Source: a virus | Lineage: Duplodnaviria > Heunggongvirae > Uroviricota > Caudoviricetes | Direction: 5' to 3' (one strand) | Length of the DNA: 5,124 nt | Virus record (IMG/VR): IMGVR_UViG_2695420708_000002 | In this document: positions 2,785 to 5,124 of the stretch, piece by piece | Position numbering within the stretch: the stretch's first letter is position 1 | How the letters are laid out: every line of letters begins with the position of its first letter | Translations under genes and position numbers: made by a program | The notes under the pieces: model-generated | Databases searched by the model: none | What the model saw: only the letters and a program-made list of their open reading frames with translations | What the model was told of the DNA's origin: nothing

Positions 2785-3057
2785 TAGACTGGCCCCCTGA
2801 ATCTCCAGACAACCAGTATCACTTAAATAAGTGATAGTCTTAATACTAGTTTTTAGACTAGTCATTGGAGTACAGATGATTGATGTCTTAGGGCCGGAGA
2901 AACGCAGACGGCGTACCACACAGGAAAAGATCGCAATTGTTCAGCAGAGCTTTGAACCGGGGATGACGGTCTCCCTCGTTGCCCGGCAACATGGTGTAGC
3001 AGCCAGCCAGTTATTTCTCTGGCGTAAGCAATACCAGGAAGGAAGTCTTACTGCTGT
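2785..3057 (+). mobile_element. IS2 (IS3 family) remnant: left terminal inverted repeat plus the 5' part of orfA; the rest of the element is deleted
   Basis: Starts TAGACTGGCCCCCTGAATCTCCAGACAACC..., matching the remembered IS2 left end; continues into insC coding sequence; similarity stops abruptly after CTGCTGT at 3057 (IS2 is about 1.3 kb when complete). Confidence 0.85.
2876..3057 (+). pseudogene. insC: Truncated IS2 transposase orfA (InsC), N-terminal ~60 codons only
   Basis: [61 protein letters not shown] matches the remembered InsC N-terminus (HTH region). After 3057 the reading runs into unrelated Rz-derived sequence and stops at 3085. Confidence 0.8.
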
Positions 3058-3420
3058 AAGCGCGACAAAAACGCAAGAGAACTGAAGCTGGCGAACGCAA
3101 CCATTACTGACATGCAGCAGCGCCAGCGTGATGCTGATGCACTCGATGCTAAATACACGAAGGAGTTAGCTGATGCGAAAGCTGAAAATGATGCTCTTCG
3201 GCGCAAGCTTGATAATGGTGGTCGGGTGCTCGTCAAAGGAAAATGCCCTGTGCCATCCTCAGCCGAAACCTCCAGCGCCTCCGGCATGGGCAATGATGCC
3301 ACCGTCGAACTCTCTCCAGTTGCTGGACGAAACGTTCTCGGTATCCGGGACGGAATTATCCGCGACCAAACAGCACTGAGAACGCTTCAGGAATACATCA
3401 GGACGCAATGCCTTCGATGA
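3058..3420 (+). pseudogene. Rz: Second Rz (lambda-type i-spanin), 5'-truncated at the IS2 junction; N-terminal TMD missing
   Basis: In-frame translation from 3058 gives [51 protein letters not shown]..., close to remembered lambda Rz from about residue 37 on; C-terminus [11 protein letters not shown] parallels the first Rz ([11 protein letters not shown]). No start codon or TMD remains. Confidence 0.8.
3173..3379 (+). CDS. Rz1: Second Rz1 (lambda-type o-spanin lipoprotein), apparently intact, embedded in the truncated Rz
   Basis: ATG 3173 with SD AAGGAG (3160-3165) and 7-nt spacer; [21 protein letters not shown]... with lipobox VVGC; Pro-rich [11 protein letters not shown]; resembles remembered lambda Rz1. 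Likely non-functional in lysis without its Rz partner. Confidence 0.7.
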
Positions 3421-3594
3421 TAGCGATAATTTTACTCATCATCCTTCACATCTGGCTCTGTAGACAGGGTGGTGCTCACTTCTGGAGTGAATCCAGATTA
3501 AACATCTCATTGCTGATGCTTGATATTGAGCATTTTGCGCGCGGTAAGGGGCTGCGTTGAGATAAGAGCCAGTCATTACAAATACCAGGATTTA

Positions 3595-3617: not shown

Positions 3618-3620
3618 ATT

Positions 3621-3748
3621 GCCATTACAAAAGCCACTTCCTACAGAGTGGCTTTGATAATGGCTTATACCCTACACGGGATAACTTAACTGATATCCCT
3701 TTTAACGGATAAAGGTATTCAAGCCTGACACATCATGCGCTGTATCGT
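3621..3748 (+). repeat. Copy 2 of the 128-bp direct repeat; uninterrupted, continues into unique sequence
   Basis: Matches 2657-2784 with about 4 mismatches by eye; begins right after the terminator T-tract. Confidence 0.8.
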
Positions 3749-4017
3749 CGCCGTATTCCCGTATTAACCATGACCGTAGCCCGACGGGGAACTCCTTCTG
3801 CGCGAGTGTGCGGGAATAATCAAAAACGATGCACACCGGGTTTTTACCGCGTTTATGGTTCGCGGGTTTGTCCCTCATGCTCGCCAGTCCTGTGCGGGGG
3901 TGGAAGAAACAGGACACTTACACTGATTCTTGTGGGTACGATGCTATTCCTTTCTGGATTATCCCGATGTCATTCATGCAGGGCGCTGTATCAGACGTTC
4001 GTCATGGCTGTCAGGCT

Positions 4018-4132
4018 GACGGGTCCTCCCGGTGGGGTGGCCTGCCACGGGGCGGGAGCGGCGCGGAAAAAGGCTAGTTTTTGAAATTTCATTCGTCATC
4101 ACCACTACTGTAATGGATTGATATTACAGTGG
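4018..4132 (+). promoter_or_regulatory. Candidate cos site: cosQ/cosN-like segment (cosN about 4050-4061) and start of cosB with an IHF-like site
   Basis: GACGGGTCCTCCCGGTG...CCACG GGGCGGGAGCGG CGCGG resembles the remembered lambda right-end/cosN junction, lying 186 bp before the small terminase ATG (about 190 bp in lambda). IHF-like TAATGGATTGATA (4111-4123) sits inside a 10-bp inverted repeat (4105-4114 / 4123-4132); AT-rich tract 4131-4180. Confidence 0.4.
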
Positions 4133-4235
4133 TTTTATTTTTATGGTGTCGATTTTGATTGTTTTTTGTTCATCACTAACACCGTTTGCCTAAAGTTGTT
4201 CGCAAGATGCATGTTTAAAACATTCTGGAGCGGGT

Positions 4236-4730
4236 ATGGATCGAGAGTTAAAAAATCTGACGCTGAATATCAGTCAACTGGCGGCACTGTCAGGTGTACA
4301 TCGCCAGACTGCTGCGGCAAGGCTGCAAAATCTACCCGTTGCAGGGGGGCATGAAAGCAACCTCAAGCTTTATCGGGTGGTTGATATTGTGTCGGCATTT
4401 CTGGCATTACCACCGCCGGTTGCAGAAGGCGAAATGGACGCGCATGAGCGCAAAGCCTGGTATCAGTCTGAACGTGAGCGTCTTAAGTTCGAACAGGAAA
4501 CGGCACAACTCATTCCGGCCAGTGATGTCAGACGGGAGTTTGCCATCTGGGCAAAAGCGGTCGTGCAGGTGCTGGAGACATTACCGGATATTCTTGAACG
4601 TGACTGCGGTCTGCAGCCTGCCGCTGTGAGCCGTGTTCAGTCCATTATTGATGATCTGCGCGATCAGATAGCCCTGCGGGTGACTGAAGCAGGTGCGGAT
4701 GATGAGGAGGAATTACAGCAGGAGGAGTAA
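4236..4730 (+). CDS. Terminase small subunit (Nu1-like, putative), 164 aa
   Basis: First gene after the cos-like site; SD GGAG at 4227-4230; N-terminal HTH-like NISQLAALSGVHRQTAAARL; acidic tail DDEEELQQEE; stop overlaps the next ATG (TAATG at 4728-4732). Function inferred from position and architecture, not from recognised sequence identity. Confidence 0.55.
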   Translation: MDRELKNLTLNISQLAALSGVHRQTAAARLQNLPVAGGHESNLKLYRVVDIVSAFLALPPPVAEGEMDAHERKAWYQSERERLKFEQETAQLIPASDVRREFAIWAKAVVQVLETLPDILERDCGLQPAAVSRVQSIIDDLRDQIALRVTEAGADDEEELQQEE

Positions 4731-5095
4731 TGCTGAATCAGGAAACCGCAAAGGCAGCACGAACCGATTCAGGTTATATCCTTCGCGCACCGAGACGAAT
4801 GCGGGTTGCTGATGCCGTTGCTCAGTATATGCGGGTGCCCATGGGGGCAGGGAACTCAGTCCCGTGGGATCCGCTGGTGGCACCGTATGTTATTGAGCCG
4901 ATGAACTGCCTGGCCTCGCGTGAATACGACGCAGTGATATTTGTTGGCCCGGCACGAACCGGCAAGACTATCGGCCTGATTGACGGCTGGGTGATTTACA
5001 ACGTGATTTGCGATCCTGCTGATATGCTGATTATTCAGATGACGGAGGAAAAAGCCCGCGAACACTCCAAAAAACGACTCGCCAGAATGAGGTAG
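4730..5095 (+). CDS. Terminase large subunit (GpA-like ATPase), N-terminal 121 codons ending at an in-frame TAG; possible pseudogene
   Basis: Walker A P-loop VGPARTGKT at the position expected for GpA-family terminases; translationally coupled to the small subunit. The ORF stops at TAG 5093-5095, far short of the ~640 aa expected; the same frame stays open to the window end. Confidence 0.55.
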   Translation: MLNQETAKAARTDSGYILRAPRRMRVADAVAQYMRVPMGAGNSVPWDPLVAPYVIEPMNCLASREYDAVIFVGPARTGKTIGLIDGWVIYNVICDPADMLIIQMTEEKAREHSKKRLARMR

Positions 5096-5124
5096 CCTGA
5101 GTTTAACGGACACTCCTTCCTGAA

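Follow-up and report, generated by a model that had tools for sequence, protein, structure and literature searches.

A lambda-type cos upstream of the terminase genes

The 5,124-nucleotide stretch of viral DNA analysed here (the window; IMG/VR record IMGVR_UViG_2695420708_000002) holds at positions 4018-4235 letters that recall the cohesive-end site of phage lambda around a core that departs from it, which raises the question of whether a phage genome ends here and whether that phage can still be packaged. We consider it very likely that this segment is the cos of an mEp460/Ayreon-type lambdoid phage, situated directly upstream of its terminase genes with nicks at 4049/4050 and 4061/4062, and that it is now a relic. 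All elements of a lambda-type cos can be read directly in it, namely cosQ, cosN, an A/T-tract spacer and cosB. The observation is confirmed and had been correctly read, and it is an ordinary one, a site of an already-known kind.

The letters quoted in the sequence-only reading were found where it placed them: GACGGGTCCTCCCGGTG at 4018-4034, CCACG at 4045-4049, GGGCGGGAGCGG at 4050-4061 and CGCGG at 4062-4066. The conserved 7-bp element expected 5′ of cosN in lambda-like cos phages, cosQ (GGGTCCT), lies at 4021-4027 on the plus strand and has the same letters as lambda block 48473-48479, which we take to be the exact coordinates of cosQ in that phage. Its name and its role in packaging termination follow earlier work (PMC4669245). 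Downstream is cosN (4048-4063, plus strand), in which the 12-mer GGGCGGGAGCGG (4050-4061), the predicted 5′ cohesive end, sits between two CG dinucleotides; by homology, the nicks would fall at 4049/4050 on the top strand and at 4061/4062 on the bottom strand. Compared with the lambda junction (NC_001416), the block ACGGGTCCT is identical, as are ACG and GGGCGG on the two sides of the left nick and CGCGG beyond the right one, and the 12-mer departs from lambda at positions 7, 8, 9, 11 and 12 only. GGGCGG on the left and the CG on either side are kept, and all variation falls within bp 7-12 (CG, GGGCGG, GAGCGG and CG in order along 4048-4063), as described for cosN (PMC4669245).

The cosQ heptamer is also present in cdtI, Tritos, mEp460, phi458, PhiR40_1 and VT1-Sakai, all found by BLAST, and in the Gifsy-1 record, which was fetched by accession. 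For phi458, similarity to the window starts right at cosQ and the DNA 5′ of that point is unrelated. The constancy of cosQ among IMG/VR loci is circular, because those loci were chosen with the cosQ motif.

One might ask whether the resemblance is fortuitous and no packaging site exists here. Alignment to the lambda cos, proposed as a check by the sequence-only reading, gave a divided answer: generic local alignment of a 410-bp window segment to the lambda junction stayed at chance level (score 22, against 20.1 ± 2.5 for 2000 dinucleotide shuffles), whereas the structured pattern that we used in its place, GGGTCCT-N20-25-CGGGGCGG-N6-CG, has a single match in the window (4021-4063) and none in any of 200 shuffles. 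The site also stands where it should with respect to the terminase genes, viable phages have the identical sequence, and two phage records have their ends precisely at this point, so that a fortuitous origin is exceedingly improbable.

Those two records, cdtI (AB285204) and Tritos (OV696610), are linearised exactly at the equivalent of 4049/4050, starting at the base that corresponds to 4050 and ending at that of 4049. Like the window, they have cosQ, the left flank CCTGCCACG (the rest of the spacer being 1-5 bases off) and CGCGGAAAAAGGCTAGTTTTT on the right, and their small terminase, 42% identical to that of the window, is of one family with it. Unlike the window, they carry T rather than G at position 12 of the 12-mer (GGGCGGGAGCGT), and both the cosB past about +40 and the N-terminal domain of the small terminase are of another type. 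Lambda may have served as the model for where such records start, which is explicit for the mEp460_4F5 assembly. A break in that assembly 5 bp from the predicted nick was considered as evidence of a physical end and rejected, since nucleotide 1 was set by its authors relative to reference genomes. Phage mEp460 (NC_019716) has identical cosQ, spacer, GGGCGGGAGCGG and R3, with 129/135 bases shared over cosN-cosB. The records of mEp460 and Ayreon (MF807953) are opened at the small terminase gene and leave cos unannotated. The record ends of cdtI and Tritos, the identity with mEp460 from cosQ to cosN and the lambda-like layout together support the reading of a lambda-like cos with matching flanks and first six bases and a divergent second half.

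Natural variation of the cohesive end

Among lambda-like phages, conservation extends to cosQ, to positions 1-6 of cosN and to the CG dinucleotides at its edges, and positions 7-12 vary naturally and withstand mutation (Feiss et al. 2015, PMC4669245). The 12-mers of lambda (GGGCGGCGACCT), Gifsy-1 (GGGCGGCAGCGT), cdtI (GGGCGGGAGCGT) and the window (GGGCGGGAGCGG) form a stepwise series, with Gifsy-1 two steps from the window. N15, whose sticky ends are annotated, has GGGCGGCGTCCG with G at position 12 like the window. Both the Salmonella phage Gifsy-1 and N15, natural cosN variants that the Feiss laboratory has studied or cited, show the same right-half variation beside a conserved cosQ, left half and flanking CG; unlike the window, they have Nu1-type small terminases, and the cosB of N15 consists of a single R without an IHF site. 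In the IMG/VR sample we counted at least 22 right-half variants, the window's exact 12-mer at least 5 times and the form with T at position 12 at least 14 times.

The right half differs from lambda because it is under little sequence constraint, the enzyme being placed there by cosB and not by the bases that it cuts. The window offers a clear natural example of the rule of Feiss et al. that the cosB-side half of cosN is free to drift. The variant 12-mer is ordinary natural variation and not remarkable. The divergence of the cohesive end noted from the letters is real, and such right-half variation is documented and tolerated (PMC4669245).

Spacer, IHF site and repeats of cosB

Between cosN and cosB lies an I2-like spacer (4067-4094, plus strand, bp 18-45) with phased A5/T5 tracts (AAAAAGGCTAGTTTTTGAAATTTCATTC), corresponding in position to lambda I2, a poly-dA/poly-dT segment at bp 18-50 (PMC4856287). 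Its first ~15 bp (AAAAAGGCTAGTTTT) are near-constant in all DUF1441-type phages, including cdtI and Tritos with their different cosB, and the remainder is variable.

A blind search for the best direct/inverted/direct triplet of repeats proposed three candidate R sites. The R3 candidate TCATCACCA (4096-4104, plus strand, +47 to +55) has the same position as R3 of lambda (bp 50-65) and N15 (bp 48-60) and is unchanged in 17/18 distinct window-type cosB sequences. The R2 candidate TGGTGTCGA (reverse complement TCGACACCA; 4144-4152, minus strand, +95 to +103) is inverted relative to R3 and R1, and inverted copies occur at like positions in Fels-1 (+93), in Gifsy-2 (+97) and in the relatives L088 and L076 (both +97). 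The R1 candidate TCATCACTA (4170-4178, plus strand, +121 to +129) has counterparts at +120 in Fels-1, +123 in Gifsy-2 and +122 in L088 and L076. By itself the window's triplet scores 21/27, a value equalled or exceeded in 21% of shuffles (p about 0.21). The same search recovers the true R3/R2/R1 of lambda (p 0.003), the triplets of Fels-1, Gifsy-2, L088 and L076 fall within a few bases of the window positions (p 0.01-0.02), and the three candidates are conserved across 18 close relatives.

Between R3 and R2, where a complex cosB has its IHF site (I1), there is a consensus match: the core TATCAATCCATTA (4111-4123, minus strand, +62 to +74) fits WATCAANNNNTTR perfectly and is its sole match in the window on either strand. 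A perfect core is found in 15/33 distinct cosB sequences of the family, always on the minus strand and at +61 to +64, and in the 18 close relatives nearly all variation lies within its four N positions.

Flanking the IHF core is an inverted repeat, ACTACTGTAAT / ATTACAGTGGT (4104-4133), with 11-nt arms at 4104-4114 and 4123-4133 that are 91% complementary; it was also scored as a weak terminator-like hairpin, and at this locus Rfam returned no family at gathering score. In close relatives the changes in the arms are uncompensated, leaving 5-11 of 11 positions complementary, and more distant family members do not have the repeat at all. It is probably not a selected hairpin. Roles as a terminase binding site or a terminator were rejected, as the repeat is not kept among relatives. 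The inverted repeat, the IHF-like site and the AT-rich tract that had been pointed out downstream are all present, the AT content being 72% from 4107 to 4180 and 51% in the window overall; what is conserved as cosB is the IHF core and the three candidate 9-bp repeats, and not the inverted repeat.

The overall design is that of lambda, which has the same cosQ, the same frame of CG, GGGCGG, six free positions and CG, an A/T-tract spacer, an IHF site, a small terminase start ~190 bp from cosN and an adjoining gpA-family large terminase gene; the candidate repeats follow its order of direct R3, inverted R2 and direct R1, with the IHF site between the first two. The candidate R motif differs, being TCRWCACYA-like in the window and CGTTTCC-like in lambda, and the spacings are shorter, with R3, R2 and R1 centred at about +51, +99 and +125 in the window versus roughly +57, +116 and +158 in lambda. 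The Salmonella phages Fels-1 and Gifsy-2 and the Stx1 phage VT1-Sakai have small terminases of the window's family, with 40-56% identity, and in their cosB the direct/inverted/direct repeats stand at matching positions. Their R motifs are CATCATC (Fels-1 and VT1-Sakai) and CGACACTG (Gifsy-2). The 12-mer of Fels-1 is GGGCGGCAGCGG, and Fels-1 and Gifsy-2 have GGTACTCC at the place expected for cosQ.

In two natural swaps, cosB travels with the N-terminal domain of the small terminase. Compared with the window, one relative (L112) has an N-terminus at 100%, a C-terminus at 68% and a cosB at 99% identity, and another (L082) has 68%, 99% and 80%, respectively. Values of 0.00 in the pairwise identity table are alignment artefacts, and only these two clear swaps were used.

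Open reading frames across cosN

Two open reading frames on the plus strand, 3770-4084 and 3829-4077, span the 12-mer at 4050-4061. Were either of them a gene, the region would be protein-coding and its resemblance to cos secondary. Hypothetical proteins are indeed annotated here in mEp460 (across cosN), Ayreon and PhiR40_1, and ORF 3829-4077 matches PHROG 17397 (E 1.5e-50), a match that reflects repeated ORF calls over conserved cos DNA. Against coding, a Pfam scan of the two frames gave no match, and substitutions are scattered over codon positions with no third-position excess. Frame-breaking indels lie over the ORFs in five relatives (L119, L113, L072, Tritos and cdtI), where stop-free stretches drop to 31-49 codons. 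The NCBI pipeline annotates nothing here in E. coli TF5 or in the 12 genomes among the matches listed, and in virion DNA such an ORF would be split. We regard a coding origin as very improbable. The earlier suspicion that these ORFs are unlikely to be genes is borne out by the missing annotation, the frame-breaking indels and the substitution pattern. They should not be called as genes, and the corresponding entries in mEp460, Ayreon and PhiR40_1, labelled 'hypothetical protein' or 'late gene regulator', likewise deserve no trust. The late-gene module of the phage has its true left boundary at cos.

Terminase genes and their truncation

The first gene after cos is an intact small terminase subunit gene of 164 aa (4236-4730, plus strand), which matches Pfam DUF1441 (PF07278; E 2.7e-41) and PHROG 141 'terminase small subunit' (E 7e-74). 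It starts at +187 from cosN, against +191 in lambda, and its product is 100% identical to that of Ayreon, 569R4 and 813R6 and 99.4% identical to that of mEp460. In lambda the corresponding protein is Nu1. A Pfam scan of the window's protein found DUF1441 only and no Nu1-family model (PF07471), and BLASTP against Nu1-type proteins gave E of 2 or more. Profile-to-profile comparison, made with shallow alignments, gave 70-73% probability (E about 4e-5) for a match in register with the Nu1 winged helix-turn-helix, and a profile search of solved structures did not find Nu1 and returned a weak helix-turn-helix match only (E 0.068). A single-sequence AlphaFold model was set aside, its pLDDT being 44-67 in the N-terminal 40 residues. 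From these profiles the DUF1441 small terminase is probably a remote relative of Nu1. A small terminase outside the Nu1 family lowers the case that this is a Nu1-type system, not the case that it works like one.

Next is a large terminase gene of which only the N-terminal ~119 codons remain (4730-5087, plus strand). The fragment matches positions 2-80 of 247 of the Pfam GpA_ATPase profile, so that the gpA-family large terminase that stands just 3′ of a lambda-like cos is represented here by its N-terminal part. In E. coli TF5 the intact version is 700 aa long and combines a GpA_ATPase with a GpA_nuclease domain, and mEp460 and Ayreon, isolated viable phages, have full-length large terminase genes, in contrast to the window. 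The gene is truncated by the left end of an IS3-family insertion sequence (5088-5124, plus strand). Every E. coli match to the large terminase region ends at 5087, and a 39-base query covering 5086-5124 has matches in 3,148 E. coli genomes, one of them lying 28 bp ahead of a gene annotated as 'IS3 family transposase'. Further upstream, the lysis region is rearranged around IS fragments and contains a 129-nt duplication as well as a second Rz, which is incomplete and fused to part of a transposase.

As the large terminase gene stops after ~119 codons at the insertion sequence, the prophage cannot cut or package its own DNA. The locus does not combine the intact large terminase gene and intact late operon expected of an inducible, self-packaging prophage, and its cos is a relic. 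Of the proposal that this is the genome terminus of a packaged phage, the reading as cos stands; 'packaged phage' must be dropped for this locus because of the truncation. The junction of large terminase and insertion sequence, and also the cosN core, had no match in a one-genome-per-species collection in which Shigella is merged into E. coli. The full arrangement of the window was found in no complete E. coli genome, the best reaching 66%.

The gene order also bears on whether this could be the cos of a phage-inducible chromosomal island (PICI) that hijacks the terminase of a helper phage, and not the phage's own. PICIs do have lambda-like cosQ and cosN with a cosB of their own (PMC9026076), and among the viral contigs surveyed some contain additional cos sites that no terminase gene follows. 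In a PICI, however, an rpp gene comes after cos at about +100 and terminase genes are absent (PMC9026076), whereas the window has the small terminase at +187 and then a gpA-family large terminase, in the order of an intact phage. We give a PICI origin almost no weight.

A related question is where such a terminase would cut. With a terminase only distantly related to that of lambda, the site could be a real cos whose nicks or overhang length differ from the lambda-derived prediction. In favour of this are the DUF1441 rather than Nu1 small terminase, a two-fold symmetry of cosN lower than in lambda (8/16 versus 10/16 positions), a distance from the end of cosQ to cosN of 22 bp instead of 23, and the visibly different sequence of the family member Gifsy-2 at the cosN position; the accessible literature holds no end-mapping for the 12-mer or for this terminase family. 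On the other side, selection in lambda acts on GGGCGG and on the CG at either edge, and the window conserves all of these; two independent records begin at precisely the predicted position, and the TF5 counterpart of the large terminase has a gpA nuclease domain. Moreover, the distance from cosN to R3, which sets the nick position in lambda (PMC4669245), is within about 3 bp of that in lambda and N15. A shifted cut thus appears quite improbable, and we retain the nicks at 4049/4050 and 4061/4062 as the prediction.

Proposed mechanism in an intact relative

The sequence anatomy, the homology, the ends of the records and the truncation of the large terminase gene are seen directly; for an intact relative, we infer the nick positions, the protein-DNA contacts and the role of IHF from lambda. 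The DUF1441 small terminase would bind R3, the inverted R2 and R1 through its N-terminal helix-turn-helix, and IHF would bend the DNA at 4111-4123, between R3 and R2. The bound cosB complex would then anchor the gpA-family large subunit over cosN, where it would introduce nicks 12 bases apart, at 4049/4050 on the top strand and 4061/4062 on the bottom strand. This would give virion molecules whose 5′ cohesive end is GGGCGGGAGCGG, packaged rightward from the cosB end, and termination of packaging would require the cosQ (4021-4027) of the next cos.

Distribution and possible use in trans

The cos of the window is of the mEp460/Ayreon type, found in a widespread group of E. coli phages. Of 5,426 complete E. 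coli genomes, 1,428 contain the cos region, a single genome having as many as 5 copies. Such abundance allows a further possibility, that the orphan cos and the intact small terminase are used in trans, a co-resident or superinfecting phage of the same specificity cutting here and packaging chromosomal DNA rightward. Consistent with this, the window retains an intact cosQ, cosN and cosB that hardly differ from their counterparts in viable phages, and the small terminase reading frame is intact and identical to that of Ayreon. Termination would, however, need another cos, pointing the same way and lying roughly a genome length further downstream, and the idea is speculation from sequence alone. 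We judge it unlikely for this locus. In its broader form, the relic cos with its intact small terminase would be a chromosomal packaging-initiation site usable in trans by mEp460-type phages (roughly one in four complete E. coli genomes has their cos region), mobilising host DNA to the right; separately, DUF1441-type small terminases with TCRWCACYA-like R sites would define a packaging specificity distinct from those of lambda, 21 and N15. We offer this broader form as a conjecture with a small chance of being correct; the relic cos of an mEp460/Ayreon-type phage remains our reading of the locus.

The cos of DUF1441-type terminases appears to have no experimental characterisation in the literature reached. 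A full-text search for the 12-mer returned G-quadruplex and primer papers only, with no phage context, and papers that mention DUF1441 (on Ahp2 and Chi-like phages) contain no end-mapping data. This type of cos is very common in prophages of E. coli, Shigella and Salmonella, including VT1-Sakai, some Stx2a-converting phages and the cdtI phage.

The cos site and its cohesive end

Judged from its sequence organization, the segment 4018-4235 is very probably a real lambda-type cos site, correctly recognized in the sequence-only reading, and the sequence quoted there was confirmed at its coordinates. It comprises cosQ (GGGTCCT, 4021-4027), a cosN 12-mer (4050-4061), a spacer and cosB. The junction reads GACGGGTCCTCCCGGTGGGGTGGCCTGCCACG (left flank), GGGCGGGAGCGG (12-mer) and CGCGGAAAAAGGC (right flank) in the window, against ACGGGTCCTTTCCGGTGATCCGACAGGTTACG, GGGCGGCGACCT and CGCGGGTTTTCGC in lambda. 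As had been noticed by eye, the flanks and the 12-mer's left half are as in lambda, the common elements being ACGGGTCCT, CCGGTG, ACG|GGGCGG and |CGCGG, and the second half departs from lambda at positions 7, 8, 9, 11 and 12. The proposed alignment with lambda holds in a structured sense only, because a generic local alignment of a 410-bp window segment with the lambda junction scored 22, at chance level (20.1 ± 2.5 in 2000 dinucleotide shuffles). The pattern GGGTCCT-N20-25-CGGGGCGG-N6-CG, on the other hand, occurs once in the window (4021-4063) and in none of 200 shuffles, with a chance expectation of ~1e-5 (17 specified bases, six spacings and ~10,000 positions, equal base frequencies assumed). 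The residual uncertainty sits in the nicks, predicted by homology at 4049|4050 on the top strand and 4061|4062 on the bottom strand.

The variant cohesive end is not unusual. Lambda-like phages are defined by 12-base 5′ ends resembling those of lambda, often with departures at bp 7-12 (positions 9 and 12 in N15; 8, 9 and 11 in Gifsy-1). Mutations at bp 7-12 matter little, since small terminase bound at cosB places the bottom-strand nick, and it is cosQ, bp 1-6 and the CG dinucleotides beside the nicks that are conserved (Feiss et al. 2015, PMC4669245). The window cosN fits this rule exactly. The N15 12-mer GGGCGGCGTCCG is annotated in the N15 record as the single-stranded end, the Gifsy-1 12-mer GGGCGGCAGCGT was confirmed from sequence, and lambda, Gifsy-1, cdtI and the window, in that order, give a stepwise gradation of 12-mers. 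A structured-pattern scan gave at least 22 different right halves among the viral contigs listed, with the lambda 12-mer found at least 66 times, GGGCGGGAGCGT at least 14 times, and the exact 12-mer of the window and that of Gifsy-1 at least five times each. Neither the type nor the sequence of the window cos is new. Of 5,426 complete E. coli genomes, 1,428 contain the 218-bp region at a coverage of at least 80% (793 records at 95% identity or more), and the 12 matches listed show no gene annotation there.

Predicted cut site in relatives

The proposal that this cos is the genome terminus of the packaged phage is supported for intact relatives. The GenBank record of cdtI begins GGGCGGGAGCGTCGCGGAAAAAGGCTAGTTTTT and finishes ...GGGTCCTTCCGGTGGGGTGGCCTGCCACG, and the Tritos record starts and ends in the same way, so the opening point of both corresponds precisely to window 4049|4050; position 12 is the sole difference between their 12-mer and that of the window. 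The isolated phage mEp460 is identical to the window in cosQ, the 22-bp interval and GGGCGGGAGCGG, and its small terminase is 99.4% identical to that of the window (100% in Ayreon). The mEp460_4F5 assembly is broken 5 bp away from the predicted nick, nucleotide 1 having been set by its authors from known genomes. A full-text literature search, limited to searchable texts, returned no phage-related occurrence of the 12-mer.

At cohesive-end position 12 (window 4061) the window and mEp460 have G, and the closest relatives of mEp460, the otherwise near-identical 569R4, phi458 and prophage of E. coli TF5, have T. Given this G/T difference, mixed infections or recombinants would give a cohesive-end mismatch as studied for lambda and N15 (PMC4669245). 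The similarity of phi458 to the window starts exactly at cosQ, the DNA upstream being unrelated, which marks cosQ as the left edge of a shared module.

cosB and the small terminase

The features described downstream of cosN are present, namely an inverted repeat (4104-4114 and 4123-4133), an IHF-like site (4111-4123, minus strand) and an AT-rich tract (72% AT over 4107-4180). Counted from 4050, the spacer from +13 to ~+45 is CGCGGAAAAAGGCTAGTTTTTGAAATTTCATT, which by its location and its A/T tracts corresponds to I2, the lambda spacer between cosN and cosB. The first ~20 bp of the window spacer (to ~+33) are nearly constant in all phages with a small terminase of Pfam family DUF1441, that of the window, even where cosB is of another kind; the remainder varies, and sequence beyond ~+40 diverges between phage groups. 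A blind search for the best direct/inverted/direct triplet of 9-mers, scored against shuffles, recovers lambda R3, R2 and R1 at 51, 114 and 153 (0.3% of shuffles as good). In the window it returns TCATCACCA (+47), TCGACACCA (inverted, +95) and TCATCACTA (+121) as candidate R3, R2 and R1, a triplet that is non-significant alone, with 21% of shuffles scoring as well. Triplets in matching places, each with its own motif and p ~0.01-0.02, are found in Fels-1 (+45, +93, +120), Gifsy-2 (+52, +97, +123) and the family loci L088 and L076 (+45, +97, +122); of 18 distinct window-type cosB sequences, 17 keep the candidate R3 unaltered, and the candidate R2 and R1 hardly vary. The candidate R3 of the window lies in a position equivalent to R3 of lambda (bp 50-65) and N15 (bp 48-60), and in lambda the distance from cosN to R3 sets the position of nuclease cutting. 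The IHF core is perfect and falls between the candidate R3 and R2; such a core is present in 15 of 33 distinct family cosB sequences, in every case on the minus strand at +61 to +64, and in close relatives its variation is almost all in the four unspecified positions. No upkeep of the inverted repeat is seen, as changes in its arms are uncompensated (5-11 of 11 positions complementary) and the repeat is absent from more distant relatives.

The window small subunit belongs to Pfam DUF1441 and PHROG 141 rather than Pfam Nu1, and BLASTP gave no link to Nu1. Profile-profile comparison of DUF1441 with the Nu1 family, from shallow alignments, gave 70-73% probability (E ~4e-5) over nearly the full length, with the Nu1 recognition helix (residues 17-24) aligned to window residues 24-31 and the Nu1 wing (31-39) to AGGHESNLK. 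A sequence search of solved structures returned a weak HTH match and nothing better, and a single-sequence structure model was unusable. For these three reasons a Nu1-like winged HTH is rated only as likely. Two loci are natural domain swaps that favour this functional picture: L112 is 100% identical to the window over the N-terminal 60 residues, 68% over the C-terminal part and 99% in cosB, and L082 is 68% and 99% identical over the same parts, with a diverged cosB (80%). cosB is therefore co-inherited with the protein's presumed DNA-binding end, which is also the case in lambda. DUF1441 small terminases are also found in mEp460, Ayreon, VT1-Sakai and other Stx phages, mEp043, mEp213, Gifsy-2, Fels-1, cdtI and Tritos; Gifsy-1, cited in the Feiss papers, has a Nu1/21-type small subunit and lies outside this family. 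The Salmonella members Gifsy-2 (L130) and Fels-1 (L131) carry GGTACTCC in place of cosQ GGGTCCT, which is at odds with the published view that cosQ does not vary naturally, and Gifsy-2 is visibly different at the cosN position (CCACG GGTGGCTTCGGG CTCGCGG).

ORFs crossing cosN

ORFs 3770-4084 and 3829-4077 both span the 12-mer and, as the sequence-only reading anticipated, are unlikely to be genes. Neither has a Pfam domain, the NCBI pipeline annotates nothing over them in TF5 or in the 12 genome matches listed, and substitutions in 11 relatives are scattered across codon positions. Frame-breaking indels (1, 2 or 8 bp) occur in five relatives and shorten the stop-free stretch across cosN to 31-49 codons in the most divergent. 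ORF 3829-4077 matches PHROG 17397, which indicates no more than repeated calling of the ORF on conserved cos DNA. CDSs labelled 'hypothetical protein' or 'putative late gene regulator' and placed over the cos region in the records of mEp460 (NC_019716, 44129-44377), Ayreon (MF807953, 44298-44582) and PhiR40_1 (PV340560, 18169-18474) are probably over-calls; those of mEp460 and PhiR40_1 cross cosN by coordinates.

A degraded prophage late region

The window is part of a degraded lambdoid prophage late region. It opens with the end of a multi-copy element (1-52; 4,958 of 5,426 E. coli genomes match it at 100%, with a median of 10 copies each), probably an IS1 terminal repeat. There follow a phage-21-type holin (239-454), a lysozyme (454-951), a full Rz (936-1406), a KilA-N/ORF11CD3 gene (1608-2105) and an HTH_Tnp_1 transposase HTH fragment (2876-3085), presumably IS66-family orfA. 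Directly after it come the 3′ two-thirds of a second Rz (3112-3420; PHROG 13 positions 54-154), a 50-aa ORF (3408-3560), ~675 bp in which no credible gene was found, the small terminase gene (4236-4730), the first ~119 codons only of a gpA-family large terminase gene (4730-5087) and the left end of an IS3-family element (5088-5124). The intact order in TF5 is holin, lysozyme, Rz, 50-aa ORF, 675 bp without an annotated gene, DUF1441 protein, 700-aa large terminase, a small gene and portal, which is the lambda gene order. Window matches in E. coli genomes all end at 5087, and the 37 bases beyond are the IS3-family element end. The remnant of the gpA ATPase domain covers profile positions 2-80 of 247, and no part of the nuclease domain is left. 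This prophage is unable to cut its own cos, so the description as genome terminus of a packaged phage fits the intact relatives, not the window locus. Since cos and the small terminase gene are both intact, use of the site in trans by a related phage is conceivable, if quite improbable.

The window holds one and two-thirds lysis cassettes, with the complete Rz at 936-1406 and the partial one at 3112-3420. A 129-nt direct repeat (2656-2784 and 3620-3748; 97% identical, 964 bp apart) flanks the transposase fragment and partial Rz, and resembles a scar left by two prophage lysis modules after a recombination or duplication between them. Between Rz and cos, a block of ~215 bp (3700-3915) recurs at 86-98% identity in some 270 phage records, lambda-like and many Stx-converting phages among them; those records mostly carry no feature annotation over it, and no Rfam match was found.

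Other cos arrangements in viral contigs

Five IMG/VR contigs (L010, L023, L028, L085 and L060) carry lambda-type cos patterns in facing pairs, 535-880 bp apart. In L085 capsid-like genes precede one cos, and after the other come repeated CCGGACAT motifs, no small terminase gene being recognisable there, an arrangement that could be the cos of a chromosomal island beside that of a prophage. Two further viral contigs carry several cos sites of the GGGCGGGAGCG[G/T] type on one strand within 2.4-8 kb, three in L035 (96, 8231 and 10767) and two in L111 (11171 and 13611), which suggests tandem or nested prophage remnants.
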